Shown here: in pieces, positions 7,741 through 23,229 of the stretch | Layout: the number at the start of each line of letters is the position of its first letter | Position numbering within the stretch: position 1 is the first letter of the stretch | Assembly (NCBI GenBank): GCA_964613805.1 | Contig: CAZTJF010000004.1 | Location: 51,070 to 115,069, forward strand | Source: an uncultured Ignavibacteriaceae bacterium | GTDB lineage: Bacteria > Bacteroidota > Ignavibacteria > Ignavibacteriales > Ignavibacteriaceae | DNA: 64,000 nucleotides | Direction of reading: 5' to 3' | The notes under the pieces: generated by a model | What the model was told of the DNA's origin: nothing | Database searches by the model: none | What the model saw: only the letters and a program-made list of their open reading frames with translations | Position numbers and translations under genes: made by a program

Positions 7741-8949
7741 ATGGAAACAAAAATAAAGAAAAGAACAGGTCCGATTATATTTTCAGAGTACGAAAGAGGA
7801 TCGGCTATTAAAAAAGCTCTCGATATGAATCGAGAAGATATTCTGCTCGAAATTAGAGAATCAAAACTTAAAGGAAGAGGCGGTGCTGGTTTTCCAACTT
7901 CAACTAAATGGATGTTAACTGCAGCTTCTTTGAGTGATGAAAAATTTATTATTTGCAATGCTGATGAAGGCGAACCAGGAACGTTCAAAGATAGAGTCCT
8001 TCTAATTGAATATCCTGAACTCGTGTTAGATGGAATGGTCATTGCCGCATATACTATTGGCGCGCAGCAAGGAATAGTTTACTTGAGAGGTGAGTACGAA
8101 TATCTGCTTAAACCGCTTCAAGATTACCTCGAAGGAATGCGTAAAGACAATTTGCTTGGTAAAAACATTCTTGGCAAGCAGGGATTTTCTTTTGATATAA
8201 CTGTCTTTCTTGGTTCTGGAGCATATGTCTGCGGCGAAGAAACTGCATTGATAGAATCTTTAGAAGGGCATCGCGGTGAAGCACGTAACCGACCGCCATA
8301 TCCGGTTAACACCGGTTACATGGGAAAACCCACTATCGTAAATAATGTTGAAACACTCGCTTCGGTACCTCACATTATAGTTAAAGGATCTGCATGGTAT
8401 AAAAAACTTGGAACAGGTGTTTCAACTGGTTCGAAACTGTTTTCAGTTTCAGGTGATTGTGATAAGCCAGGTGTTTATGAATTACCTTGGGGTACTAAGA
8501 TAAGTGAACTTCTCAAATTAGTTGAAGCAAAGAATACCAAAGCTGTTCAAGTCGGTGGAGCATCTGGATTTTGCTATAATAAAAATCAGTTTAACAGAGC
8601 ACTTGCTTATGAAGATGCTGCAACTGGCGGCTCAATCATGATATTTAATGAAAACCGGGACATGCTAAGAGTGCTGGACAATTTTATGGAGTTCTTTGTA
8701 GATGAATCTTGCGGACAATGTACGCCATGCCGTATCGGTAATGTGAAAATGCTTGAAGGAGTGAAGATGATTCAAAGAGGCGACTATACTTTTGCCTATA
8801 TCAATAAACTGAAAGAATTAGGTAAATCAATGCAAGTAGCATCAAAGTGCGGATTGGGGCAATCAAGTCCAAACGCTTTCTTATCAATCTTAGAAAACTT
8901 TAATGAAGAGATATTTAACCGAGAAAATGGAGTTGACAATGAAAACTAA
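7741..8949 (+). CDS. hydB: [FeFe]-hydrogenase flavoprotein subunit, NuoF core only (HydB2)
   Basis: [53 protein letters not shown] and CGLGQSSPN motifs. It lacks the C-terminal 2x[4Fe-4S] domain present in the paralog at 1-1026. Confidence 0.9.
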   Translation: METKIKKRTGPIIFSEYERGSAIKKALDMNREDILLEIRESKLKGRGGAGFPTSTKWMLTAASLSDEKFIICNADEGEPGTFKDRVLLIEYPELVLDGMVIAAYTIGAQQGIVYLRGEYEYLLKPLQDYLEGMRKDNLLGKNILGKQGFSFDITVFLGSGAYVCGEETALIESLEGHRGEARNRPPYPVNTGYMGKPTIVNNVETLASVPHIIVKGSAWYKKLGTGVSTGSKLFSVSGDCDKPGVYELPWGTKISELLKLVEAKNTKAVQVGGASGFCYNKNQFNRALAYEDAATGGSIMIFNENRDMLRVLDNFMEFFVDESCGQCTPCRIGNVKMLEGVKMIQRGDYTFAYINKLKELGKSMQVASKCGLGQSSPNAFLSILENFNEEIFNRENGVDNEN

Positions 8950-10855
8950 AGAAACTTCCCGAGCTCCTGTAAGTCAACAGGCACATGTTATTCAAAAACC
9001 AGAGCATCCGGAATACATCGGCGGTTCCATTTCGGTTGAGATAAATGAGAAGAAAGTTACTGTTCCAATGGGAACAACAATTCTCGAAGCGTGCAGACAA
9101 AATCAAGTTTATGTTCCAACGTTATGCCATCACGATGATTTGTGTATTGCCGGCGTTTGCAGAATATGCGTGGTTGACGTTGAAGGAATGAGAACTTTAC
9201 AAGCTGCTTGCGCTTTTCCAATTACGGCACCAATAAAAATTAGAACTTCAACTCCAATGGTTCGCAAAGCAAGAAAGCATATCATTGATCTTCTTCTAAG
9301 CGAGCATTACGGTGAATGTTACTCGTGTTTTAGAAATAACAACTGTGAGCTTCAAACACTGGCAAAAGAATATGGTGTTGATCATTACAATTTTGGTCAT
9401 GTTGAAAATCCAAGATATGAAGTTGATAGCTCGTCCTATTCTGTTGTTCGTGATATGGATAAATGTATCTTGTGCAAAAGATGCGTTCGCACCTGCATAG
9501 ATTTACAGGAAGTCGGTGTGCTTGAAGCAATTGGTAGAGGATATAAAACTCGCATCGGCACTTTTTCAGAAAAACCATTAGCAGAAGTTGTGTGTATTAA
9601 TTGCGGGCAATGCATAAATCGCTGTCCAACCGCTGCATTACGAGCTAACGATCCTCGTGACGAAATTTGGGAGGCAATTGATAATCCGGATAAGCATGTT
9701 GTAATTCAAACAGCACCCTCTCCGAGGGCTGGAATTGGTGAGGAATTTGGAATCGAACCAGGTCATTCTTTTACAGGAGAAATGAACACGGCATTAAGAA
9801 GAATCGGTTTCGATAGAGTATTCGATACAAACTTTACTGCCGATCTAACAATAATGGAAGAAGGAACTGAATTACTGCTTCGGCTTTACAAAGCACTTGT
9901 CAAAAAAGATACTTCTGTCGTGATACCTCAATTTACATCATGTTCACCGGGCTGGGTAAAGTACCTCGAACATTTTTATCCCGAATTTATTCCGAATCTC
10001 AGTTCAGCAAAATCACCGCAGCAAATGTTTGGTGCACTTATAAAAACTTATTATGCCAAGAAGCATAACATTGACCCTGCTAACATTGTTAGTGTTGCGG
10101 TTATGCCTTGCTCAGCAAAGAAGTTTGAGTGCAACAGACCTGAAATGACTTCATCCGGATTTAAGGATGTTGATTATGGATTGACGGCACGTGAACTTGC
10201 TCAAATGATTAAAGAATCAGGAATTTATTTACCTGAAATGCCAAAGTCCAATTTTGATGATCCATTTGGTGATGCATCAGGTGCAGGACTTATTTTCGGT
10301 GCAACCGGCGGTGTAATGGAAGCAGCACTTAGAACGGTGATTGAATTAGTTACTGGAATAAAAGTTGAAAAAGTTTTTGATAATATGAACATCATGCCAG
10401 TTAGAGGATTTGAAGGAATTAAATATGCCGAACTTCCAATTACAAAAGTCGGACCTGTTCCCAAAATTTTAACTCATCTTGTTCCTAACTGGGATTGGCT
10501 AAAGGGAGCAACCGTAAAAGTAGCAGTTGCGCATGGTACAGCCAACGCAAAGAGAGTAATTGAGGATATCAAAGCCGGCGGTAAATTCAGCGAATGTCAT
10601 TTCATTGAATTCATGGCTTGTCCTGGCGGATGTATAGGAGGCGGTGGTCAGCCAATTCCTACAAATGCTGAGATTAGACGACTTAGAGCAAAAGCAATTT
10701 ATGATGAAGATGCTTCGCTCGGATTGCGAAAATCTCACGAGAACACTCACGTATTAAAACTGTATGAAGAATTTTTGACTGATGGTCCTTGCGGGCACAC
10801 GGCGCATAAACTGCTTCATACGCATTATACGAAGAGAGGAAAGTTTATTTCCTAA
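8939..10855 (+). CDS. hydA: [FeFe]-hydrogenase catalytic subunit, M3-type (HydA2) with variant L1 motif
   Basis: 2Fe-2S region (CHHDDLCIAGVCRICVVDV), HYGECYSCFRNNNC, CILCKRCVRTC and CINCGQCINRCP. H-cluster motifs: L1 FTSCSPGWV (variant), L2 MPCSAKKFE, L3 EFMACPGGCIGGGGQP. The start is ambiguous (ATG 8903, 8927 or 8939). I chose 8939 because a GGAG lies 6 nt upstream. Confidence 0.9.
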   Translation: MKTKETSRAPVSQQAHVIQKPEHPEYIGGSISVEINEKKVTVPMGTTILEACRQNQVYVPTLCHHDDLCIAGVCRICVVDVEGMRTLQAACAFPITAPIKIRTSTPMVRKARKHIIDLLLSEHYGECYSCFRNNNCELQTLAKEYGVDHYNFGHVENPRYEVDSSSYSVVRDMDKCILCKRCVRTCIDLQEVGVLEAIGRGYKTRIGTFSEKPLAEVVCINCGQCINRCPTAALRANDPRDEIWEAIDNPDKHVVIQTAPSPRAGIGEEFGIEPGHSFTGEMNTALRRIGFDRVFDTNFTADLTIMEEGTELLLRLYKALVKKDTSVVIPQFTSCSPGWVKYLEHFYPEFIPNLSSAKSPQQMFGALIKTYYAKKHNIDPANIVSVAVMPCSAKKFECNRPEMTSSGFKDVDYGLTARELAQMIKESGIYLPEMPKSNFDDPFGDASGAGLIFGATGGVMEAALRTVIELVTGIKVEKVFDNMNIMPVRGFEGIKYAELPITKVGPVPKILTHLVPNWDWLKGATVKVAVAHGTANAKRVIEDIKAGGKFSECHFIEFMACPGGCIGGGGQPIPTNAEIRRLRAKAIYDEDASLGLRKSHENTHVLKLYEEFLTDGPCGHTAHKLLHTHYTKRGKFIS

Positions 10856-10999: not shown

Positions 11000-12502
11000 A
11001 TGAAAAAAGTCCTTTTTTTCTGTTTATGCTCTTTTCTTTCATATCAATTATTAGCTCAACCCTTCCAGAAAAAGCAGATAACAAATTTTGATTGGGATTC
11101 AAGAGGTGCTGTAATTCCAAATTATCCGCTTGGAATTTCAACCTTGCCCAATTCGCCAATATTTTTTGAGGCACATAAGAATAATTCTTCTAACATTATG
11201 ATGATGAGCTACAGTCCGAATGCTGACAGCTTTTACAATCCCACTGAGCTAACAAAGAACAATTTCCTTAATATAAATGCTGATGCAAGCTGCAGCCAAA
11301 TTTATCCTAATGTTAAAGTCAATATAATTTGGCAAACCAACGAAAATGGTAATTGGGATATTGCACTTAGAACACTAACAGATTCCACTTGGAGTGCAAA
11401 AAAATACATAGCTAATTCTCTATCAAATGAAACCAACCCTAAATTTGTTGCAAGACATAATAATCATTTTCCCACAGCAACTTCTATTGAAGTTTTATAT
11501 GAAAGAGATAACAGCATTTATCTTTATAAAGAGACTGAGTCAGTTGTGACTAATGAAATAGTTTTCAGTGGTGATAGTTTGAATAAATTCACTCAGTCCA
11601 CTGGAATTTATTATGATGTTTGGTTTGGACCCCCCTCCGGTTTGTATGTAGCTGCTGTTTACAAACCAAATGATACGGCTTCTATTATTGTTTATCGTTA
11701 TAAAGCAAACGAAGATTCGGTTTGGAGTCCAATTCTCACAGCTTATGACAGCGGTTATTGTGAAAATCCAAGTTTTTACAACGTGTTTTTTGAACAATGT
11801 CCAATGAGTTTTGAAAAGGTAATCGGAAACAAACGACAAGTATTTGTTATACCCAAATTGGAGTATCTTGGTCAAAACAACCAAGCCGTTAAGCTCACAG
11901 ATAATACAGCAACCAGCACTTCAAACTTGAAGATGTTCATGTATGGTATGGTTGGTAAAAAAGAAAACTTAGAGGATTATTATTTCTCAGGACCTCATTC
12001 ATTTAAATCAATTTCCAATGACTCAACCTACATTGTTTGTTTATTTTATCCTTTTCCAGTACATGCAATGTTTTATTCTAAAGTAGCTGACAGTAGAATT
12101 GGTTTGGGTAATATCGGTATGTTTTACGGCTATGCTGTCTCTTATCGAATTTGGGAAGATAGTTCCGATGGAAAAATTAATTTATTTGGTTTTTTGATGT
12201 ATGATCCTTTGGGAAATGTAGATGATAAAATTGAGGCAACTAATTTTCAGCTTTACCAAAATTACCCCAACCCCTTTAATCCCAACACTGTAATTCGGTA
12301 TAGCTTACTCTCAAGAGATTTTGTTACCCTTAAAGTTTTTGACGTATTGGGAAATGAAGTTGCAGCATTAGTAAATGATGAAATGGATGCTGGTGAATAC
12401 AAAACAATTTTTGATGGATCAAATTTAGCAAGCGGAATTTATGTCTATCGGCTGACGGTTGGAAAGAATTATATTAGTCGAAAGATGATATTATTAAAAT
12501 AA
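11000..12502 (+). CDS. Secreted protein of unknown function with T9SS C-terminal sorting domain
   Basis: Signal peptide (MKKVLFFCLCSFLSYQLLAQ). The C-terminal ~80 aa (LYQNYPNPFNPNTVIRYSL ... GIYVYRLTVGKNYISRKMILLK) match the T9SS type-A CTD pattern. Confidence 0.75.
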   Translation: MKKVLFFCLCSFLSYQLLAQPFQKKQITNFDWDSRGAVIPNYPLGISTLPNSPIFFEAHKNNSSNIMMMSYSPNADSFYNPTELTKNNFLNINADASCSQIYPNVKVNIIWQTNENGNWDIALRTLTDSTWSAKKYIANSLSNETNPKFVARHNNHFPTATSIEVLYERDNSIYLYKETESVVTNEIVFSGDSLNKFTQSTGIYYDVWFGPPSGLYVAAVYKPNDTASIIVYRYKANEDSVWSPILTAYDSGYCENPSFYNVFFEQCPMSFEKVIGNKRQVFVIPKLEYLGQNNQAVKLTDNTATSTSNLKMFMYGMVGKKENLEDYYFSGPHSFKSISNDSTYIVCLFYPFPVHAMFYSKVADSRIGLGNIGMFYGYAVSYRIWEDSSDGKINLFGFLMYDPLGNVDDKIEATNFQLYQNYPNPFNPNTVIRYSLLSRDFVTLKVFDVLGNEVAALVNDEMDAGEYKTIFDGSNLASGIYVYRLTVGKNYISRKMILLK

Positions 12503-12706: not shown

Positions 12707-14116
12707 ATGATACGATTAATTCCTGATTGGGCACACAAATACGAAGCATTTTGGGATGCTATACGAAAACGCAACATGTGGTTCATCAAGCTGCGTTATG
12801 GAGCCGTGTTAATGCTCACAAGTTTTATTCTTGCTTCCGAATATTTCCTCGGATTTAAGTTTACCGAGACGCAAACTATTGCTATATCTGTAATAACAAT
12901 ATCAATTTTGACTTATAATGCACTTTTACATATTGGTAAGAAACATATTAAATCAATCGCTGGACAATTTAATCCTCTCCATCTTTCAGTAATTCAGATA
13001 CTTTTAGATTTTATTGCACTCTTTTTACTCGTTCATTTTACCGGAGGAATCGAAACACCATTATACATGCTATTTGTTTTTCATATGATAATTGGAAGCT
13101 TGATACTTCCGGGTTCAATAATTTACCCTGTCGGAGCTGTTGTTGTGTTAGGTTTTGGCGGTATTGTTTTTTCAGAATATTATCACATCATTCCGCATTA
13201 TGCCATTCAAGGTTTCCTAAATACTCAACTTTATGATGATTTCAATTACGTTGTATCAATCTTTACAATTTTTGGATTTACAATTTTTATTAGCATTTAT
13301 CTTGCAAATGGAATTGCACGTCAACTCTATAGTATGGAACAGGATTTAATTGAAACCCTTGATCGTCTCAACGTTGCAGAAATGGAAAAGCAAAGGTATA
13401 TCGTGGGGATTGTTCATGAGATAAAAACACCACTAACAGCAGTTCAGTCTTATTTAAATTTGATACTACAAAAATTCCTTGGACCTCTCGATAAAAAAGT
13501 TGAAGAACGACTAATCAGAGCGCGTACAAGATCTGAAGAAGCAATACACCTAATAAATGATGTGATAAAAATTTCAAGGTTTAAATTATTTAATCAGTTT
13601 GTTCATGAAGAAATTCTGATTGAAGAAGTGATGAGCGAACTTGCAAATAAACATTCCGAAATTGCAGAAACTAAAAAGATTAAACTGGTATTTAATGATA
13701 ACAGGAAAACCAATACAAAAATAAAGGGCGATAAATTTTTGTTAACACTTGCAATTTCAAATCTTATTGGCAATGCCGTAAAATTTGTCGGTAAGAAAGG
13801 ATTAATTGAAGTGAATATGGAAGATGATGAGAATAACCTGCTTATTTCCATTTGTGATAATGGTATGGGCATTCCTGAAAACGAATTAGAGAAAATATTC
13901 ATAGCATTCTTCAGGTCATCTAACGTAAGTAAAGATAAGCAAGAGGGAGCCGGAATTGGTTTATCAATTGTAAAAGAAATTATTGAAAAGCATGAGGGAA
14001 AAATCTCAGTCGAAAGTCCTTCAAGATTAACAAACGGCAATAAACCTGGAACGTGCTTTAAAATACAATTACCTAAAATCAATATTTCATCAATAAAAAA
14101 AGGAGGAGTTCAATGA
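12707..14116 (+). CDS. Polytopic membrane sensor histidine kinase
   Basis: About six hydrophobic segments with short loops at the N-terminus. H-box (IVGIVHEIKTPLTAV) and HATPase_c (NLIGNAVKF ... DNGMGIP ... GAGIGLSIVKEII). The stop overlaps the next start (ATGA at 14113). Confidence 0.85.
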   Translation: MIRLIPDWAHKYEAFWDAIRKRNMWFIKLRYGAVLMLTSFILASEYFLGFKFTETQTIAISVITISILTYNALLHIGKKHIKSIAGQFNPLHLSVIQILLDFIALFLLVHFTGGIETPLYMLFVFHMIIGSLILPGSIIYPVGAVVVLGFGGIVFSEYYHIIPHYAIQGFLNTQLYDDFNYVVSIFTIFGFTIFISIYLANGIARQLYSMEQDLIETLDRLNVAEMEKQRYIVGIVHEIKTPLTAVQSYLNLILQKFLGPLDKKVEERLIRARTRSEEAIHLINDVIKISRFKLFNQFVHEEILIEEVMSELANKHSEIAETKKIKLVFNDNRKTNTKIKGDKFLLTLAISNLIGNAVKFVGKKGLIEVNMEDDENNLLISICDNGMGIPENELEKIFIAFFRSSNVSKDKQEGAGIGLSIVKEIIEKHEGKISVESPSRLTNGNKPGTCFKIQLPKINISSIKKGGVQ

Positions 14117-15477
14117 ACAACATTACTTCTAAAATTATCTTTTCCACCGCACTTATTTTTATTTTCTGTTTTGATAATTATTCACAGCAAGTGAAAGCCG
14201 GCGATCATGCGTTGGGCACAAGAAAATATGAAGACTTCAGCAAAGCCACTCTTTGCGGATCTGCGTGTCATAATGATTTCTTTCAGCAGTGGAAACAGGC
14301 AATGATGTCCCAATGTTATCATCACGAGTGGGATGAAATAGAATACTTCAAGCTTGCTGTTCCACATGCAGAGAAAGATCAGATTGTTGCCGGAGTTAAA
14401 GCGGGATGCAACGGTTGTCATGCGCCAATTTCATTTTTAGCTGGTGATGTTCCTCCACCAAAGCCAGATAAAATGTCTATGGCTAATGAATCTGTAAACT
14501 GCGATGTTTGTCATACAGTAACCGGATTTGAAGGTGATACACCATTCAACTTCAACTTTATTTCTTCGCCGGGAAATGTGAAGTATGGACCGAGAGAAAA
14601 TGTTGAATCGCCCGAACATGAAATAAAGAAATCTGAATTCTTAGCTAGTGCAGAATTTTGCGGTACATGCCACAATGAAAAAGATCCCTATGGAATTTGG
14701 GTTAAGTCAACACATCTTGAATGGAAGGAAGGTCCATATGCAAAGGAAGGCGTTAAATGCCAAAATTGCCACATGACTTATGCACCAGGATATACCGCTG
14801 CGATGGGGAAATTTTATCCGGATACTCGTCAGCATCTATTTCACGGTGCTCATGATCCTGGTAAAGTAAAAGGCACAATTGAATTACGAATCCATCCCGA
14901 CATAAATGAAGCTGAACCTGGCGAAAGAGTAAAATTCACAATTGCATTGTTCAATCAAAAAACCGGACACAAATTTCCAACTGGTTCAGTGGAAGATAGA
15001 ATTGTCTGGATGCACGTCGAAGCGGTTGATGCTAAAGGAAAAGTATATCACATACCTGTGGATAAAAAAGGTTTCGCGGGCGAAGAATTTACAATTGGAA
15101 GTGATGCGCTTGCTTATCAGGATATGGGAATAGCTTTGAACGATGAGAATTTCAAAGGCGTACAGCGTGATGGAATTCCAATTGGAGATAGGATATTTCG
15201 CATGCCGTATTTTGATCCTCAAGGTCGAATGACAATTCAGCAGTGGAACACAAAATCTCTTGGTGTTGATTACAGGATCGGACCAAGAGAAACAAAATTA
15301 GAAACTTGTACTTTCACTCTGCCGAATAATCTTCCACCAGGAAAACTTAAAGTCACTGCTATTTTAAATTATCAGAAACTTGTAAAACCGGTTGCAGATT
15401 TTCTTGGTGTTCCCGAAGAAGAATCAGAGATTATCAAAGTAAATGAGCATTCAACTTACGTTAACATTTTACCATAG
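14113..15477 (+). CDS. Periplasmic multiheme cytochrome c (4 CxxCH + 1 CxxxCH)
   Basis: Signal peptide present. Heme motifs: CGSACH (Cx3CH), CNGCH, CDVCH, CGTCH and CQNCH. The C-terminal ~170 aa are beta-rich and have no heme motifs. Confidence 0.85.
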   Translation: MNNITSKIIFSTALIFIFCFDNYSQQVKAGDHALGTRKYEDFSKATLCGSACHNDFFQQWKQAMMSQCYHHEWDEIEYFKLAVPHAEKDQIVAGVKAGCNGCHAPISFLAGDVPPPKPDKMSMANESVNCDVCHTVTGFEGDTPFNFNFISSPGNVKYGPRENVESPEHEIKKSEFLASAEFCGTCHNEKDPYGIWVKSTHLEWKEGPYAKEGVKCQNCHMTYAPGYTAAMGKFYPDTRQHLFHGAHDPGKVKGTIELRIHPDINEAEPGERVKFTIALFNQKTGHKFPTGSVEDRIVWMHVEAVDAKGKVYHIPVDKKGFAGEEFTIGSDALAYQDMGIALNDENFKGVQRDGIPIGDRIFRMPYFDPQGRMTIQQWNTKSLGVDYRIGPRETKLETCTFTLPNNLPPGKLKVTAILNYQKLVKPVADFLGVPEEESEIIKVNEHSTYVNILP

Positions 15478-15485
15478 GTGCACAA

Positions 15486-16634
15486 ATGAAAAAAACAATT
15501 TTATTCTCTCTGTTGATTTTAATTTTAGTTCCTTACGCTACACAAGCAATTCCTGCCTTTGCTCGGAAGTACAATATGACTTGCAAGACCTGTCATGCAC
15601 CATTTCCAAAACTCAAAGCTTACGGTGAGGAATTTGCCGGTAACGGTTTTGTTTTAAAAGATCAAGATGCTCCAAGATATTTTGTGGAAACAGGTGACGA
15701 AAAACTTTCGTTGATAAGAGATATTCCACTTGCGGTTAGAGTTGACGGCTATGCGACTTTCAATTCCGAAAAATCGGAACGATCCGATTTTAAAACTCCA
15801 TTTATTTTTAAACTATTGTCGGGCGGTTCAATTTTTAAGAATGTTTCATACTATGTTTATTACATTCTTGAAGATGGCGAGGTAGGCAAATTAGAAGATG
15901 CATTCGTGATGTTTAATGATCTTTTCGGAAGCGGACTCGCCTTTTCAATTGGTCAATTTCAGGTATCCGATCCTTTATTCAAAAGAGAATTAAGACTGAC
16001 ACTTGCCGATTACGACATTTACAAAGTGAAAGTTGGTAATTCTCATACAAATCTTACTTACGATCGTGGCATTATGTTGAATTATGGATTTGAGACTGGA
16101 ACAGATTTAACTTTTGAAGTCATAAATGGAAATGGTATTGGTGCAATTGAAAATGGAAACTTTGATAATGACAAGTACAAAAATTTTATGGGAAGAATAT
16201 CACAAGATCTTGGTGAACATATAAGAATAGGCGGATTTGGTTATCTTGGAAAAGAGGAAACAAATGATGTTACAAGTGATTTGTGGATGGTTGGTCCGGA
16301 TGCAACAATTTCTTTTGATCCGATTGAACTGAATGTGCAATTTGTAGAAAGACGGGATAAGAATCCATTCTTTCTGAGTAATGCAGCTATTGAAATTAAA
16401 ACACGCGGAGCTTTTGCTGAACTGATCTTCAGGCCCGATGGTGACAATAGCAATTGGTACGCAGTTGGTTTATACAATTGGGTTGAGTCTAACATCGGTA
16501 TGCTTGATAAAAAATCTGCATCTTTTCATTTAGGATATCTTATGGCAAGAAACATTAGACTGGTTGGAGAACTAACTTACGACTTTACAAATAAGTTTAG
16601 TAAGATCGGGTTAGGTTTTGTTTCGGCTTTTTAG
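15486..16634 (+). CDS. Fused monoheme cytochrome c / outer-membrane beta-barrel protein (Cyc2-like)
   Basis: A signal peptide is followed directly by AIPAFARKYNMTCKTCHAPFPKLKAYGEEF, which holds the single CxxCH. The rest shows an alternating-hydrophobicity, Gly/aromatic-rich pattern. The C-terminus (GLGFVSAF) ends in an aromatic residue, typical of OMP barrels. Confidence 0.65.
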   Translation: MKKTILFSLLILILVPYATQAIPAFARKYNMTCKTCHAPFPKLKAYGEEFAGNGFVLKDQDAPRYFVETGDEKLSLIRDIPLAVRVDGYATFNSEKSERSDFKTPFIFKLLSGGSIFKNVSYYVYYILEDGEVGKLEDAFVMFNDLFGSGLAFSIGQFQVSDPLFKRELRLTLADYDIYKVKVGNSHTNLTYDRGIMLNYGFETGTDLTFEVINGNGIGAIENGNFDNDKYKNFMGRISQDLGEHIRIGGFGYLGKEETNDVTSDLWMVGPDATISFDPIELNVQFVERRDKNPFFLSNAAIEIKTRGAFAELIFRPDGDNSNWYAVGLYNWVESNIGMLDKKSASFHLGYLMARNIRLVGELTYDFTNKFSKIGLGFVSAF

Positions 16635-16643
16635 TTTTTAATT

Positions 16644-16708: not shown

Positions 16709-19700
16709 TTACTTGATTATCACCATCTTCCTGCTTTTAATAAATCCCTTTGCAGAAAGTTGATAGACATAAACTCCGCTTGCAAGATAGTTTGCGTTAA
16801 AATCAATTGAATATCTGCCCGCAGGTTGAAACTCATTAACCAAAGTTTTTACTTCACGACCAAGAATATCATAAATCTTTAACTCGACTTTAGTATCTGT
16901 TGGAATATCGTATTGAATTTTGGTTGTTGGGTTAAAGGGATTGGGATAATTCTGATAGAGCGAATAATCAGTTGGAATAATTTTAGACGAAAGAATATTC
17001 TCTTTATTATTCCTTGCTCTTATAAGTGCATTTAGTTTTGTTCTATAATCGTTTGCATCTTTGGCTGATAAATCCATCCCGCTTACTTTACTCATAGCTG
17101 TATTTCCGCTATCCAAAAGCGATGTTGTGAGTATGTCTATTGCAGCAAAGAACGCTTCCTCACTATTCGGATTCTGAGTAATAACTTCACCAAAATTATT
17201 TATTGCCTGAACGTAATCTTTCTTTGCAACTAAACAAAGATCACTCAAGTGTTTTACTATTTTTAGCATTAAGGTATCTTGAATTGATTGTAATTTGTTG
17301 TCATAGAAACTTTTTAATTCAGAAAAAGTTGAAGCTAAAGTATCAGTTAATTTTGATATGGTGTAAAGTTTAGTGTATGCTTCAATGCTTTTTCTATCCG
17401 AACCATTCGTTTGAATTATTCCATAATAAACTTGTTTTGCTTCGGTAAAATTACCAATGTAAAAATGTTTTGAAGCTAAAGCGTAAGCTTCGGAAATTGA
17501 ATCTGCTGATACAGCTAATCCTAAAGAATAGATGGTATCAATAACAGTTTCGCCTTTACTGTCCTCAATCAGTACAAAATCCCCGTCGCTTTGTTTAGTG
17601 CATGGTTCATTATTATATGGCTCGAAATTAACTTCAACATCGCTCTCAATCCTATGAGATGGATCGTTGCCATATCTTGGATGATTTCCCCAATAATTAT
17701 AATTAGCTCGAATTGGGCTGCGTGTCCTTTCACTAAAGAAAAGAATACGCGTGTTTAAGCCAGGCTGCTCTATTCTGTTGTCGGCAATGGTATTGCAGCC
17801 GTAACCAAGAAGGATATCAGCATCAAACATATGAATTTCTGCCCCATTGTAAAGATTAGCATCGCCATTTTCAAATATTTGATTCAGACCGGATATTGGA
17901 AATACTTTTACTGTCTCCTCTCTTTTTATCATACCTTCTGATAAATCAGGTATTGAACCACTCGATATATATAAGCCGGCTGCTTTATTATCTGTAATAA
18001 TATTTTGCCCGATTTTAGGACTTGAATTACCGAGATCGATTCCTTTTTCAAAACGAGTAATATGATTTAGACGATATATTCCATCGCTGGAGTTTGAAAA
18101 TATTCCAGATTCTGCTGTACCACGATTATTCAGTATTTGTATTAGATTGTCAGCAATATATGGATTTGCTACTTGCAAAAGTTGTATACCAAAATCATAG
18201 TCATTGATGGTATTACTTTCTATTGCTGCTTCGGATCCATTCATTAATATTATAGCACTTGTTTTTTCATTTTCGCTTACAGGTTTCGGCGATGTTATAA
18301 TATTTTTTTTGATGATAGGAAAAATATTCTGAAAGTCATTAAAATAAATACCTTCAATACAATTATTGATTTGGTTGTTTTCGATAATAAAATTACCGGA
18401 TACGATAGGGTTTTCAGATGATTTAAAATCTCTCCCACAGGAAATACCATAATCAAAATTTGATATGATGCAATCTGAAATATTAACATTTTTACAATTA
18501 AGGGTAGAAATGCCGCGAGAATCATCTATAGGCGCTTCTTTAAATAATGTTACATTTTCTATTTTAAGATTATTTACGCTGAAAACTTGAATCCCCCGCT
18601 TATAATTATCGCCTCTTATTATAGAATTTTTTATAATGACTTCATGACTGTTTGGAGAAACTTTTGTATCTAAATATAATCCTTTGGACATATCATTGAA
18701 CTCGACATTATCTATATTTATAGAGGCAATGTTACTTGCATGAGTTTTTATTTCGATAATATATACCCTATTAATTATAGCATTAGTTAACTCAACATAA
18801 TTTGCATCGCTAATCGTAATAGAAGAATTAAAATTGTTCGAGTTAATCCGTATCTTAATTGATTCCGTTCCAACTGCATAAAGCTTATGTTTTATTAGCA
18901 GTTTACTCGTGTCATTAAAAAAGAGCACTGCTCCGGCAGCAATGGTTAAGCTATCTGTACTTAGAGATGATTTATTATTGAAACGCAAATGCTCCCCGGT
19001 ACCAACTGTTAAATTTGTTGCTGTTAGATAGCTGTTATTATAAAAATTAAAAGTGCCATTAGCTATTAGAACATTTGCAGTATCAAATTTGGAATTTGAA
19101 AATCCATAAAAGTTAAGTACTGCTTCGTTTTCAATTTCGAGTGTCCCATCTATTTGAAGCGAGGCATTTCTTCTAAAATTTACTATTGCATCGTGTGGTA
19201 TAGTTAATTTTATTCCTTCGGGTACGATAAGTTTACCGTAGATATCTCCGCTTGTAATAGTTGTATCTTGTGTAAGTATTTTAGTTACTTGTGCTGGGAG
19301 TATTCTGGTTAGGGGGTCACCAACTATTACATTCTGCCAAGCTAAATATTTCATGCCCATATACACAGCATCGACATAATTGTAACCAATAGCATATGCT
19401 GGCATAAATATATTGTTATATATTACTCCACTTGGACCATAAGATGGTACTGGCTCCCAGGCATGTCCCATCATTCCTGTCCCGCCAATTTGAGTAAATT
19501 GAGTTGCCAAACCCTGTGTACGATTATTTTGATACGACGAACATGGAGCTATCCAACGCCACTTTAAAACCCCAATACTGTTTCCATTAAAACTTTCGAG
19601 TGAGTTGAAAACTGCACCAGGGGCAAATTGAAAATATTGTAGGGAATCTTTAACCCAGTTTGAATCTGTAAATGCACAATTGTCATCTTCTGCATGCGTT

Positions 19701-20656
19701 CCCCAGGATGAATAACCGATTACCGAACCATCATTATGTGTTATCCATTTCCCATCGTTATTCCAATTAACATTAAAACCAAGAGCTTCGAGCTTATTCT
19801 TTGCATCTGTAAAGAAAGAATAATGATATGTGGATGGAATATCATCATCATCTAAAACCCAGGTAGCAGTTCCGGTAGTGTCAGCATTTTTTGAACTATC
19901 AATTATTCCTTTAACTATTTCAAAACTTAATCCATCCAAATGTGAAACAAGGTAAGATAATTTAATCGTATCTGTTCCCATTATTTTCATAAAGCGATCA
20001 GGTAAGAATCTGTAATCCAATGTAAAATTTTTATCGGAATCAAAGTACGGATTATTTATTTTAGGTTGATAATTTACGGCATCAAATAAAGTTTGGAGTA
20101 GAAAAGTATCATAATTTGAAGTATTTAAAATTGATAATAAACCATCAACTGTTAAATTGCCAGGTAACGCTTGCCAATCGCTTCCTGCTTGAATTTTATA
20201 TGGGACTCCTTTACAAAGGACGATGTACCTTATTGTTGAAGTTAGGTTATGAGATGTTATCCAATTGCGGATTGGTGTGGATACGTTATTCAGAAAATAT
20301 ACCCAGGCATGACGATTCGCTCCAGTCCAAGGCAATATATTTTTAGAGCTGTCTTGAATAATGTCTCCATTTTGTGCAATGATAACTCTGTGTGTGCTGC
20401 CGTCTATTGTAATTGTTTGTGAAGTTAAAGAATTTAAAGGGCAAATATTTACCGCTGGTATGCCGCGGGCGAGCCGGTAGTATTCCTTCACTGAATCAGA
20501 AACAGCTCCTAAAGTATCTGTTGGATCAGATTGCACCTTATATACCACTAATATGTTTTCTGGACCTGGGATTCCAGCATAAGTGGGTATCTGTTGTGCT
20601 TCTATAAAATTGTTACAATAAAGAAGCAGCAAAACAAAAAGTAAAAAATTTTTCAT
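16709..20656 (-). CDS. Very large secreted protein: N-terminal unknown domain + right-handed beta-helix repeats + helical region + T9SS CTD
   Basis: Signal peptide present. The central region has repeated N/I/G-rich turns typical of parallel beta-helix proteins (NLKIENVTLF, NVNISDCIISNFDYGIS, IIENNQINNCIEGIY). The C-terminus is a T9SS sorting domain (LYQNYPNPFNPTTKIQYDI ... GVYVYQLSAKGFIKSRKMVIIK). Confidence 0.75.
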   Translation of the reverse strand: MKNFLLFVLLLLYCNNFIEAQQIPTYAGIPGPENILVVYKVQSDPTDTLGAVSDSVKEYYRLARGIPAVNICPLNSLTSQTITIDGSTHRVIIAQNGDIIQDSSKNILPWTGANRHAWVYFLNNVSTPIRNWITSHNLTSTIRYIVLCKGVPYKIQAGSDWQALPGNLTVDGLLSILNTSNYDTFLLQTLFDAVNYQPKINNPYFDSDKNFTLDYRFLPDRFMKIMGTDTIKLSYLVSHLDGLSFEIVKGIIDSSKNADTTGTATWVLDDDDIPSTYHYSFFTDAKNKLEALGFNVNWNNDGKWITHNDGSVIGYSSWGTHAEDDNCAFTDSNWVKDSLQYFQFAPGAVFNSLESFNGNSIGVLKWRWIAPCSSYQNNRTQGLATQFTQIGGTGMMGHAWEPVPSYGPSGVIYNNIFMPAYAIGYNYVDAVYMGMKYLAWQNVIVGDPLTRILPAQVTKILTQDTTITSGDIYGKLIVPEGIKLTIPHDAIVNFRRNASLQIDGTLEIENEAVLNFYGFSNSKFDTANVLIANGTFNFYNNSYLTATNLTVGTGEHLRFNNKSSLSTDSLTIAAGAVLFFNDTSKLLIKHKLYAVGTESIKIRINSNNFNSSITISDANYVELTNAIINRVYIIEIKTHASNIASINIDNVEFNDMSKGLYLDTKVSPNSHEVIIKNSIIRGDNYKRGIQVFSVNNLKIENVTLFKEAPIDDSRGISTLNCKNVNISDCIISNFDYGISCGRDFKSSENPIVSGNFIIENNQINNCIEGIYFNDFQNIFPIIKKNIITSPKPVSENEKTSAIILMNGSEAAIESNTINDYDFGIQLLQVANPYIADNLIQILNNRGTAESGIFSNSSDGIYRLNHITRFEKGIDLGNSSPKIGQNIITDNKAAGLYISSGSIPDLSEGMIKREETVKVFPISGLNQIFENGDANLYNGAEIHMFDADILLGYGCNTIADNRIEQPGLNTRILFFSERTRSPIRANYNYWGNHPRYGNDPSHRIESDVEVNFEPYNNEPCTKQSDGDFVLIEDSKGETVIDTIYSLGLAVSADSISEAYALASKHFYIGNFTEAKQVYYGIIQTNGSDRKSIEAYTKLYTISKLTDTLASTFSELKSFYDNKLQSIQDTLMLKIVKHLSDLCLVAKKDYVQAINNFGEVITQNPNSEEAFFAAIDILTTSLLDSGNTAMSKVSGMDLSAKDANDYRTKLNALIRARNNKENILSSKIIPTDYSLYQNYPNPFNPTTKIQYDIPTDTKVELKIYDILGREVKTLVNEFQPAGRYSIDFNANYLASGVYVYQLSAKGFIKSRKMVIIK

Positions 20657-20667
20657 ATTATCTCCTT

Positions 20668-23229
20668 CTATTTAATTAGTATTAGTTTTTTTGTAGCGGT
20701 GTATCCGCTTTTTGTTGTCATTCGATAGTAATATATCCCCGAAGCATATTTTTTTAGATCAATCTCAATACTGTAAATACCTCTTTCTTTTTCTTCATTA
20801 AGTATTTCTTTAATTTTTTCTCCAGTCATTGAGAAAAGTTCTATTTTCACTGAAGTCCTTTGGGGAACGGTAAATGAAATATTGGTATGAGGGTTTGCCG
20901 GATTTGGGTAGTTTTGTGTTAAAACAAAATTATTAACTAGAATTTGTATTGAAACAACTTCTGAAAATTTATTGCTGCCATCAAAATCTATTTGCTTTAT
21001 TTTATAATGAAGTTGTTCACTTTCAATTTTAAAGTCACTGAAGGAATAATTTCTAATTTCTGTACTTGTTCCAGCTCCATGAAGAAAACCAATTTTTTCC
21101 CAATTTTGTAAATCAGAAGATTTCCAAATTTCAAAACCATAATTGTTGACTTCACTTGCTGTTGACCAGTTTAATTCAATTTTATTTAAGGAATACCTCG
21201 CAGTGAGTTGTGTAAGTTCTACGGGTACATAGGTTGTGTCGAAATATTTCAATATCAGTCCATAACCGCTTACTGCATATCCAATATATTCGATTGGAGA
21301 ATGAAACTGTCCAAAAATAGCAGGCAACTCTCCACTTATTTCTTCCCAAGAATTTCCATTATCGGTGGTTTCAAAGACTTGACCCATAGACCATCCATTC
21401 GAAATCCAATGATATTTATTCGGAAAAGCATGAATATTATATGATGTTTCGATTCTTGTTTCTCTTTGCCAACTAATGCCACCATTTGTTGTTTTATAAA
21501 GATCATGACTACCGGTATTTGTCATATCAACTGTGACAAATCCTGTATCAATTGATGTGAAATATATGTTTCTATTAAAATAAAGCTGCACATCTGTTCT
21601 CTGAATCCAATTCGTACCACCATTTGTAGTTTGCCAAATGTATCTGCTTGTTGCCCAGCCGTTGAGCGAGTCTATGAAGTATATGCTTGTAAATGAATCT
21701 ATAGATAAATCTTCTAACTGCTCAAACCAATTCTCCCCGCCATCTGTAGTTTTTAATATCTTTCCTTTTGTCCCAGGAGACCATCCAGTTGCTGCCCAAC
21801 CAGTCGTTTGGTTAGTAAAAAATATTTTATAAACAGTGCCTATCGTATCGCTAGTATTTGTTACGTACCAATTTACCCCACCATTTATTGTTTTATAAAT
21901 TCTTACTTGATCAACGTCACCGGTATAAGTTGTACCAATAAATCCGATAGCATCGTCGGTAAAAACAATATCGTTACCGCCTGGTGCACCAGAGACTATT
22001 TCCCAACTAACTCCGCTATCTTCCGTTTTAAATAACTGTCCATACGGCCCAGAACTAATTGCAAATCCTTTTTCTGCGCTTACAAAAAACACATCGGTAA
22101 AGTTTTCGTTAATTATTAGTTTTCTCCAGCTATCAAGGTTTCCTTCTGCCTTAAAAATATTTAGTGCAGTTCCAGCACTGTAACCTATCTTCCCAGACAT
22201 ATCTTTTAAAAACTGTAATTCATAATTATCACTTATTCCTCCAATGGGTGTCCATTCCTGCCCTCTATTGGTCGTTTTACGCGCAGATACATTGGTCATT
22301 ACCAAATAACCTGTATCTGGATTTACATATTGTATACAGTTTACAGATTCAAGATTTAAAGTCCCACCGTTAATCCAGGTATTCCCTCCATCACTGCTGT
22401 AAATGTTTTTTGCCGGATAACTTGTTCCTCCATAACCAGCCGCTGCTATGTGTAAGCTGTCTATTACATCTAAGCAAAAAAGTGGAGCGCTGTCTCCAGC
22501 TTGTAGTACTTCCCAATTAGTTCCTCCGTCTGTTGTTCTCAATACATTTCCATTTGCTGCTATAAAACCATAACTCTCAGTAAAAAAATCTATCCACCAA
22601 TAATCAGAGGTATAGCTGGGTGTAAATATTCTTTGCCACGTTAATCCACCATCAGTCGTTTTAATCAGTGAGTTTGCAGTGCCGCAAGCCCAGCCAAGTG
22701 TATCATTCAGCATTTGCAAACCCCAAAGATCACCATTAACTCCGCTTGCAACTTGTGTAAATGTTTCCCCGCCATCTGTTGAGTGGAGTATCAAACCGTT
22801 GTAACCACTCGCAATAACAACTGCTCCATTAAAACTTCGTACTTTAAGTATTGGTGTTGTAGTTTGTGAGTTAATGTTTAGCCAGCTTTCTCCGCCATCA
22901 GTAGATTTAATCAGCGTACCATTAGCCCCACAAGCCCAGCCTGTGTCTTTATTGATGAAGTGTATTCCGAGGTAATCAACTCTTGGCACTTTGGGATTTA
23001 GTTCTGTCCAAACACCGGTTCCGGTTTGTACAGTTTTTAACGGCATGAGAGAAGGGTCGTATTCGGGAAGGTTTATATGGTTGCGATAATCGGGGCGCTT
23101 GATACTTGTATCTGGATACTGCCCGCTGCTATGTGGGATGCCAACCTTCGGTTGGTAAATTTGTGGAAATGCAATAACTGCAAATGTGCAAAACAACAAC
23201 ATGAAAATTCTGTAACAAAGTTTCATCAA
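20668..23229 (-). CDS. Secreted BNR/Asp-box repeat protein (tandem beta-propellers) with T9SS CTD
   Basis: Twelve Asp-box-like motifs (STDGGESW, STDGGETF, TTDGGLTW, TTDGGTNW, SSDGGNTW, TTNRGQEW, TEDSGVSW, TINGGVNW, TTDGGENW, TTNGGTNW, TTNGGISW, TTDNGNSW). The C-terminus is a T9SS sorting domain (LTQNYPNPANPHTNISF ... LILIK). Only 11 nt separate it from the downstream gene on the same strand. Confidence 0.8.
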   Translation of the reverse strand: MMKLCYRIFMLLFCTFAVIAFPQIYQPKVGIPHSSGQYPDTSIKRPDYRNHINLPEYDPSLMPLKTVQTGTGVWTELNPKVPRVDYLGIHFINKDTGWACGANGTLIKSTDGGESWLNINSQTTTPILKVRSFNGAVVIASGYNGLILHSTDGGETFTQVASGVNGDLWGLQMLNDTLGWACGTANSLIKTTDGGLTWQRIFTPSYTSDYWWIDFFTESYGFIAANGNVLRTTDGGTNWEVLQAGDSAPLFCLDVIDSLHIAAAGYGGTSYPAKNIYSSDGGNTWINGGTLNLESVNCIQYVNPDTGYLVMTNVSARKTTNRGQEWTPIGGISDNYELQFLKDMSGKIGYSAGTALNIFKAEGNLDSWRKLIINENFTDVFFVSAEKGFAISSGPYGQLFKTEDSGVSWEIVSGAPGGNDIVFTDDAIGFIGTTYTGDVDQVRIYKTINGGVNWYVTNTSDTIGTVYKIFFTNQTTGWAATGWSPGTKGKILKTTDGGENWFEQLEDLSIDSFTSIYFIDSLNGWATSRYIWQTTNGGTNWIQRTDVQLYFNRNIYFTSIDTGFVTVDMTNTGSHDLYKTTNGGISWQRETRIETSYNIHAFPNKYHWISNGWSMGQVFETTDNGNSWEEISGELPAIFGQFHSPIEYIGYAVSGYGLILKYFDTTYVPVELTQLTARYSLNKIELNWSTASEVNNYGFEIWKSSDLQNWEKIGFLHGAGTSTEIRNYSFSDFKIESEQLHYKIKQIDFDGSNKFSEVVSIQILVNNFVLTQNYPNPANPHTNISFTVPQRTSVKIELFSMTGEKIKEILNEEKERGIYSIEIDLKKYASGIYYYRMTTKSGYTATKKLILIK

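Follow-up and report, generated by a model that had tools for sequence, protein, structure and literature searches.

A stretch of 64,000 nucleotides from an uncultured Ignavibacteriaceae bacterium (hereafter the window, meaning the whole stretch) contains a gene predicted to encode a single-heme cytochrome fused to an outer-membrane barrel, immediately preceded by a gene for a secreted pentaheme cytochrome (PHC). The locus raises the question of whether the fused protein belongs to Cyc2, a family known from dedicated iron oxidizers, which periplasmic cytochrome would serve it, and in which direction electrons would pass between the two. We consider it rather probable that the two genes form an electron module, composed of an outer-membrane heme porin and a dedicated periplasmic five-heme carrier.

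Cyc2 has been defined by a signal peptide, one CXXCH motif, and a predicted 16-strand porin, with the consensus AXPXFAR[Q/K][T/Y] before CXXCH and PXL four residues after it; a length of at least 365 aa and a blastp E-value of 1e-5 or lower to a reference Cyc2 served as working criteria (Keffer et al., mBio 2021). The N-terminus of the window porin consists of the signal peptide MKKTILFSLLILILVPYATQA followed by the predicted mature part IPAFARKYNMTCKTCHAPFPKLKAYGEEF, which starts IPAFARKYNMTCKTCHAPFPKL. Its sole CxxCH, C33-K-T-C-H37, begins at the 12th residue past the predicted cleavage site, just as an earlier note on this DNA had described it. The stretch AIPAFARKY-NMT-CKTCH-APF-PKL agrees with the consensus and has the same spacing as AYPGFARKY-NFP-CSFCH-IQW-PRL of Cyt572 from Leptospirillum, a validated oxidase of the family. 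The mature N-terminus of Cyt572 was determined by Edman sequencing to be YPGFARKYNF, cleaved after AANA (review PMC13741234), and the predicted cleavage position of the window porin aligns with this site. C33, C36, and H37, together with P23, P41, and L43, are invariant in an alignment of 24 diverse homologs (down to 23% identity), and the three heme-site residues are likewise invariant in a 75-sequence alignment, where the signature columns are invariant or nearly so. Because the heme-motif columns are unchanged across such divergent homologs, the motif is under selection and is no chance match.

The barrel proposed in the earlier note, with its terminal phenylalanine, was borne out by an AlphaFold2 model built from 75 sequences (mean predicted local distance difference test score, pLDDT, 87.9; predicted template modeling (TM) score, pTM, 0.85); the strand count that the note had suggested for such a model, made by DSSP, gave 16 long strands between residues 83 and 381, and the chain ends in VSAF. 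The heme site sits in a short, mainly helical N-terminal segment ahead of the barrel. The best matches in the PDB by Foldseek were the 16-strand general porins OmpF, OmpC, Omp32, PorB, and OmpT (TM 0.55-0.68, E about 1e-10 to 1e-11). Pfam and NCBIfam scans of the porin returned no family match, and its sequence matches in the PDB to PPR proteins were discarded as compositional noise. A word-indexed search recovered more than 5,700 relatives, all annotated as hypothetical, among them IALB_0268 of Ignavibacterium album (63% identity), and 1,807 clusters at the 50% identity level matched the porin at E ≤ 0.001 in an exhaustive search. The lack of a family match and the fold of a general porin might suggest an ordinary diffusion porin whose CxxCH binds no heme, but the CxxCH and the Cyc2 signature are invariant across hundreds of homolog clusters and a cytochrome gene invariably accompanies the porin gene, and we regard this explanation as scarcely credible.

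The length of 382 aa, which the earlier note had placed at the short end of the family, passes the 365-aa cut-off, and the functionally characterized cluster-1 Cyc2 of Ghiorsea has 389 aa. A reference for Cyt572 was recovered by back-translating the Edman peptide and scanning metagenome contigs with it, which yielded six loci; one of these Leptospirillum-type loci encodes exactly AANA followed by YPGF, and a homolog search from one recovered locus led to UniProt K4ENW4, "Cytochrome 572" (our P0348), the accession cited by PMC13741234. BLASTP of the window porin against K4ENW4 gave a pairwise E-value of 1e-10 over the N-terminal 65 aa, i.e., the cytochrome region only, while hhalign of the profiles of the window clade and the Cyt572 clade gave a probability of 99.1% and an E-value of 4.6e-19 over 362 columns, a match that therefore spans both the cytochrome segment and the barrel. 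Because of the BLASTP match and the full-length profile match to Cyt572, we filed the window porin in the Cyc2 family, and the Cyc2-like assignment of the earlier note is supported on every count: signature motif, length, single heme site, 16-strand barrel, and full-length homology to a validated oxidase. These comparisons point to a genuine member of the family.

The known proteins with which we compared it are Leptospirillum Cyt572 (cluster 3), Acidithiobacillus ferrooxidans Cyc2 (cluster 2), and Mariprofundus Cyc2 PV-1 and Ghiorsea Cyc2 (cluster 1). All of them share with the window porin a signal peptide, an N-terminal CxxCH within the signature, a 16-strand barrel, and a length of ~380-550 aa. 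The window porin differs from them in belonging to a separate, well-supported clade and in having a pentaheme partner rather than a class-I monoheme or diheme cytochrome; in addition, the hosts of its branch are heterotrophs belonging to the FCB group, Aminicenantes, and Zixibacteria rather than dedicated iron oxidizers. In a tree of Cyc2-like proteins with Cyt572 as its sole reference, the PHC-linked porins formed a supported clade (98/99) apart from Cyt572. An attempt to bridge from the distant representative P0264 toward named iron oxidizers reached only unnamed proteins or proteins from lineages other than those of iron oxidizers. In tblastn against plasmids, only N-terminal matches to the Cyc2 heme signature appeared (E about 1e-3), on NZ_CP115953.1, NZ_CP051176.1, and NZ_CP046730.1 (Ralstonia), NZ_CP088082.1 (Ideonella), and NZ_CP107559.1 (Methylocystis); all are megaplasmids or chromids, and three of the five places carry no annotated feature.

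The partner gene stops 8 nt before the ATG of the porin. Its product has five conserved heme sites, one CX3CH (CGSACH) and four CXXCH, and a C-terminal Ig-like domain. The CX3CH motif (nt 14254-14271 of the window; comparison loci L038-L080) is the first heme site and is shared by the Ignavibacteria-type homologs, while the same position is a canonical CXXCH in the Bacteroidales-type homologs, a natural swap. The homologs carry signal peptides of the SPI (signal peptidase I) type; a lipoprotein was considered and rejected, as no lipobox cysteine is conserved among them. Pfam and NCBIfam models of c554, c7, and ExtKL matched the protein weakly, the ExtKL model at E 4e-10 with a score of 38.8 against a cut-off of 250. 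In the PDB, the pentaheme c552 of Thermochromatium tepidum (5ZE8) was matched by sequence (E 1.2e-6), and this structure was by far the best fold match of the AlphaFold2 model of the partner (pLDDT 84.3; E 3.5e-18, TM 0.55/0.64). From the sequence and fold matches to 5ZE8 and the weak ExtKL match, the partner is therefore a member of the PHC family, which has been described for Geobacter ExtKL and for cable bacteria and to which the T. tepidum c552 belongs, a cytochrome called low-potential in the title of its report (Chen et al., 2019). It has the architecture found throughout the comparison set (T. tepidum c552, Geobacter ExtKL/MccSep, and the sPHC of cable bacteria), namely five heme sites in an alpha-helical cap followed by an Ig-like C-terminal beta-sandwich. 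It differs in its genetic setting, since its gene adjoins that of a Cyc2-type porin and not genes of the extHIJ type.

This family includes a true enzyme. ExtKL is MccSep, a periplasmic polysulfide reductase, whose catalysis depends on two residues, a cysteine (C239) that ligates heme 2 and a Sec/Cys located in a DGUP loop. One could therefore suppose that the partner is an enzyme like MccSep/ExtKL, that the barrel is mainly a channel for a small anionic substrate or product, and that the porin heme is accessory. Geobacter extKL does cluster with extI, an outer-membrane barrel gene, the route by which polysulfide enters is stated as unknown in the MccSep literature, and the PHC is strongly conserved, with a mean column identity of 72% across phyla; at one KSB1 locus, moreover, sulfur-relay (DsrE/TusA) and oxidative-stress genes stand beside the module. 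In 69 sequences (the partner and 68 homologs), however, no cysteine outside the heme motifs is conserved, a result of the homolog alignment that did not include a residue-by-residue alignment to MccSep itself, while six histidines outside the motifs are, enough for bis-His ligation of all five hemes. The heme-ligating cysteine and the Sec/Cys loop of MccSep are missing, on which ground we rejected a MccSep-type enzyme; the ExtKL score lies far below its cut-off, as given above, and no sulfur gene or other substrate-specific gene is consistently near the module. We thus hold the enzyme explanation to be improbable and, because of the absent cysteines and the six conserved histidines, read the partner as a presumptive electron carrier.

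The pairing of the two genes is strict. A PHC gene lies directly upstream of the porin ortholog, with a median intergenic gap of about 14 nt, in 78 of the 80 loci taken from species-representative genomes (Ignavibacteria, Melioribacter, Bacteroidales, Aminicenantes, Zixibacteria, Kapabacteria, and others); in the two exceptions, L016 and L058, the match to the porin begins so close to the edge of the locus (100-200 nt) that there is no space for an upstream gene to be seen. Across these loci, the PHC is more conserved than the porin (58-84% versus 48-66% identity). In a class-wide sample of 121 Ignavibacteria genomes, all 28 PHC orthologs adjoin a porin ortholog. A single porin ortholog lacks a PHC, in a genome of 61% completeness, and genomes whose only Cyc2 genes are distant paralogs have no PHC ortholog. 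A KSB1 genome keeps the pairing, as does a relative that is 39% identical; two relatives at 33% identity lack it. No third gene of the module is conserved, the largest flanking family occurring in 9-10 of the 78 loci. RNA-library contigs from bioreactors, derived from a relative ~92% identical, cover both genes in one piece; a contig of 3,076 nt (X26 record 8; window 14035-16637) runs from 78 nt before the start of the cytochrome past the stop of the porin, consistent with co-transcription of the two genes. The pair is also present in cultured organisms, Ignavibacterium album JCM 16511 (IALB_0268) and a Melioribacter roseus genome. We found no mention of a PHC-Cyc2 pairing in the literature searched, the coverage of which was limited. 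Two further observations concern single loci. In a Mariniphaga metagenome-assembled genome (MAG; L055:2764-3957), the Cyc2-like match contains an in-frame stop, which may be an assembly error or mark a pseudogene. In KSB1 (L090/L091), the pair has NifU, DsrE, TusA, DsrE, rubrerythrin, and desulfoferrodoxin upstream and an Fe-superoxide dismutase downstream, surroundings absent from the other loci.

Other Cyc2 genes adjoin cytochromes of another kind. The cyt572 loci of Leptospirillum have no PHC, and a small cytochrome gene is adjacent, which in the scanned locus (L082) is a class-I cytochrome c by Pfam. Twelve loci with distant Cyc2 paralogs from other Ignavibacteria were examined: in eight, a diheme cytochrome of 265-300 aa adjoins the Cyc2-like gene and in two, a small monoheme cytochrome does, and both diheme proteins and the one monoheme protein that were scanned are class-I cytochromes c by Pfam. 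As a pattern, every Cyc2 subfamily is accompanied by a periplasmic cytochrome of its own, which in the branch of the window is a multiheme PHC. The new operon context claimed by the earlier note is thus confirmed: the gene is strictly coupled to the pentaheme cytochrome gene before it, a setting not shared by the validated Cyc2 proteins compared. The likeness to Cyc2-Cyc1 pairs (Cyc1 being a class-I diheme c4) lies in an outer-membrane Cyc2-type gene standing beside that of a presumed periplasmic partner; the differences are that the partner here is upstream, has five hemes, and belongs to a multiheme fold whose one characterized structural relative is low-potential, going by the title of Chen et al. 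(2019).

Several of the paralog loci deserve description on their own account. Eight of them (L098-L105, in G070, G032, G019, G060, G006, G100, G062, and G091) encode another Cyc2-like subfamily, …IPLFARKYNxxCFxCH…, of about 390-470 aa, and their Cyc2-like/diheme pairs resemble Cyc2-Cyc1, the classical arrangement of iron oxidation. One of these (L102, G006:C19:45000-62000) has two Cyc2-like genes ~4 kb apart with extra cytochromes nearby, including an open reading frame (ORF) of 344 aa with 10 heme motifs, which matches decahemes of the MtrA/MtoA type in size and number of hemes. In a deltaproteobacterial MAG (L088/L089, P0289), a Cyc2-like gene is followed by genes for a 200-aa protein, a diheme class-I cytochrome, a Rieske protein, cytochrome b, and a large cbb3-like cytochrome protein; the whole looks like a complete operon of the iron-oxidation type.

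The earlier note had also supposed that the protein would extend fused cytochrome-porins to a new lineage. This does not hold, as Cyc2 homologs have already been published for Ignavibacteria: they were found in Ignavibacteriaceae and Bacteroidetes genomes of a humic lake (PMC6344600), iron-oxidation genes were reported for Ignavibacteriales and Zixibacteria in a deep mine with a cyc2-dominated community (PMC8478452), and homologs are known from Aminicenantes and Krumholzibacteria (PMC7914226, PMC7005843). Furthermore, 52 of the 121 genomes, which were sampled evenly from the class, gave a Cyc2-like match. About 29 of these have a porin ortholog of at least 49% identity, and in the rest the paralogs are more distant and number as many as four per genome. 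The PHC-linked branch comprises at least 588 confirmed stretches in species-representative genomes and is found in roughly a quarter of the sampled Ignavibacteria. The window porin thus adds one more, unremarkable member to a known family, whose presence in this lineage had been reported before.

How would the module work? Family membership, architecture, strict pairing, and the transcript-derived contigs over both genes come directly from the computations, whereas heme attachment, physical contact between porin and PHC, the nature of the substrate, and the direction of flow are inferred. The N-terminal segment of the porin, fused to the 16-strand pore, would carry one c-type heme if CKTCH is matured. 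The secreted, soluble PHC would be the dedicated periplasmic carrier, in place of the class-I (Cyc1-like) cytochromes of other Cyc2 subfamilies, and electrons would be exchanged between its five hemes and the single heme of the porin. The latter may react with a soluble redox compound small enough to pass into the pore, for which iron in dissolved or chelated form is the likeliest candidate; the Cyc2 pore has been proposed to admit dissolved iron (Keffer et al., 2021). Because a 16-strand pore cannot sheath a cytochrome as MtrB does, the external partner would have to be small and soluble. For the same reason, we consider it very improbable that the locus encodes a porin-cytochrome complex of the MtrAB/Pcc type, in which a multiheme cytochrome is threaded in the barrel and reaches solid minerals or electrodes, even though a multiheme cytochrome gene adjoins a barrel gene here and large multiheme cytochromes, with as many as 34 heme motifs, abound in the genome. 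An MtrB/PioB-type sheath has ~26 strands and was rejected with 16 found, a barrel too narrow for a two-domain cytochrome of 454 aa. In comparison with MtrCAB, MtoAB/PioAB, and Geobacter Pcc/Ext, whose barrels have 20-26 strands, the window barrel has its own heme site, and no gene for an extracellular cytochrome is linked to it.

As for direction, we lean toward outward flow, in which soluble Fe(III) or another small oxidant would be reduced by a low-potential multiheme donor, and give it a little less than an even chance. This lean rests on four considerations. The closest structural relative of the partner is described as low-potential in the title of Chen et al. (2019), as against a potential of +208 mV for Cyc2 PV-1 (Keffer et al., 2021); other subfamilies pair with class-I cytochromes, and the window branch pairs with a PHC; heterotrophs with an anaerobic life make up most of the hosts, and no heme-copper oxidase was seen in 10 of the 30 genomes that bear the module; and FeGenie lists cluster 3 as possible iron reduction (PMC7005843), while Keffer et al. 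called the function outside cluster 1 uncertain. Classical Fe(II) oxidation as the direction of flow is a serious possibility that stays clearly below an even chance, and what is left falls to bidirectional flow or other roles, among them reductive iron uptake and a barrel that channels substrate to a PHC acting as an enzyme. Tentatively, we extend the outward lean to the PHC-linked branch as a whole, which may not be an iron oxidase at all but a compact low-potential outward conduit to chelated Fe(III), a quinone/humic analogue, or another small soluble oxidant, in anaerobic or microaerophilic heterotrophs of Ignavibacteria, Bacteroidales, Aminicenantes, Zixibacteria, and KSB1.

The full alternative is a classical Cyc2 iron oxidase, with electrons passing from Fe(II) to the porin heme, on to the PHC, and from there to an oxidase (cbb3/caa3) or a reductase of nitrogen oxides, whereby the cell would gain energy or detoxify iron. 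The homology to Cyt572 is full-length and the motif is the defining one of Cyc2, the genome has at least two heme-copper oxidases as well as candidate tetraheme ORFs of NrfH/NrfA size and heme count, and FeGenie-based surveys label such genes in these lineages as iron-oxidation markers (PMC8478452, PMC7914226, PMC7005843). The kind of partner, the mainly heterotrophic and anaerobic hosts, a third of them with no heme-copper oxidase detected, and the doubts about function outside cluster 1 speak against it, and we judge this alternative somewhat unlikely.

Several facts nevertheless weigh against an outward-flowing PHC-porin module and must be set beside these arguments. All biochemically tested members of the family (A. 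ferrooxidans Cyc2, Cyt572, Cyc2 PV-1, and Ghiorsea Cyc2) oxidize Fe(II). The heme-copper oxidases of the window genome could accept Fe(II)-derived electrons, no gene for an inner-membrane quinol dehydrogenase accompanies the module, and the absence of oxidases from a third of the genomes may reflect incomplete MAGs. The partner is only 18% identical to the low-potential c552, and Cyt572 groups in the tree, weakly, with the diheme-linked paralogs outside the PHC-linked clade. The RNA-library contigs, besides coming from a relative rather than the window genome itself, may contain DNA, and all evidence is computational, the AlphaFold2 model of the porin having been made without heme.

The features of the locus and its surroundings are collected in Table 1. 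The upstream gene, for a polytopic histidine kinase, shares 4 nt (ATGA) at its stop with the start of the pentaheme gene, and the kinase gene is contiguous with the module in the RNA-library contigs. No response regulator gene is adjacent to the kinase gene in the window, and of the 80 loci only L002 has a homolog of the kinase ahead of the module. The kinase is a local, lineage-specific addition of this genus and stands outside the conserved module. A different PAS kinase was seen near the module in ~10 of the 80 loci and a sigma-54 response regulator in ~4. The flanking proteins with sorting domains are not conserved beside the module in other genomes, and a copy of the [FeFe]-hydrogenase gene (81% identical) is found upstream of the module in L002 only. 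Elsewhere in the window genome (G000), ORFs with 34, 20, 19, 15, 14, 13, and 11 heme motifs were noted, the contigs of note being C24 (29328-33580), C2 (54105-63696), and C13 (69409-74167). Together with the oxidases and tetraheme ORFs mentioned above, this gene content fits a facultative organism with the capacity for extracellular electron transfer.

Table 1. Positions in the window of the two paired genes, the parts of the porin, and neighboring genes.
Feature	Position	Strand	Remarks
Secreted pentaheme cytochrome (partner gene)	14113..15477	+	c552/ExtKL (PHC) family, 454 aa
Porin gene	15486..16634	+	ORF, 382 aa; Cyc2-family fused monoheme cytochrome-porin
Signal peptide of porin, aa 1-21	15486..15548	+	MKKTILFSLLILILVPYATQA; predicted cleavage before I22
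Cyc2 signature of porin	15546..15614	+	AIPAFARKY aa 21-29, CKTCH aa 33-37 (nt 15582-15596), PKL aa 41-43
Outer-membrane beta-barrel of porin, aa 83-381	15732..16628	+	16 strands; C-terminal aromatic residue (…GFVSAF)
Polytopic sensor histidine kinase	12707..14116	+	HisKA, HATPase_c, PilS-like six-transmembrane (6TM) region, sub-threshold RegB/PrrB-family match
Large secreted protein	11000-12502	+	Type IX secretion system (T9SS; Por) C-terminal sorting domain
Large secreted protein	16709-20656	-	T9SS (Por) C-terminal sorting domain
Large secreted protein	20668-23229	-	T9SS (Por) C-terminal sorting domain
[FeFe]-hydrogenase large subunit	8903-10855	+	650 aa; N-terminal 2Fe-2S + 4Fe-4S domains

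The cyc2 gene is the most widely used marker of microbial iron oxidation (FeGenie and many metagenome surveys), and the branch to which the window porin belongs is very large, is tied to a different kind of cytochrome, and occurs in hosts that are mostly not known as iron oxidizers. The question of its function can be tested, because cultured strains carry the pair and a route for expression in Escherichia coli exists for Cyc2 proteins. If the module oxidizes iron, it would represent a new periplasmic relay. If it is an outward conduit, many metagenomic calls of cyc2 "iron-oxidation potential" in these lineages would point the wrong way, and if it runs outward or acts on another substrate, the iron-cycling inventories of sludge, sediments, and the subsurface would need correction.

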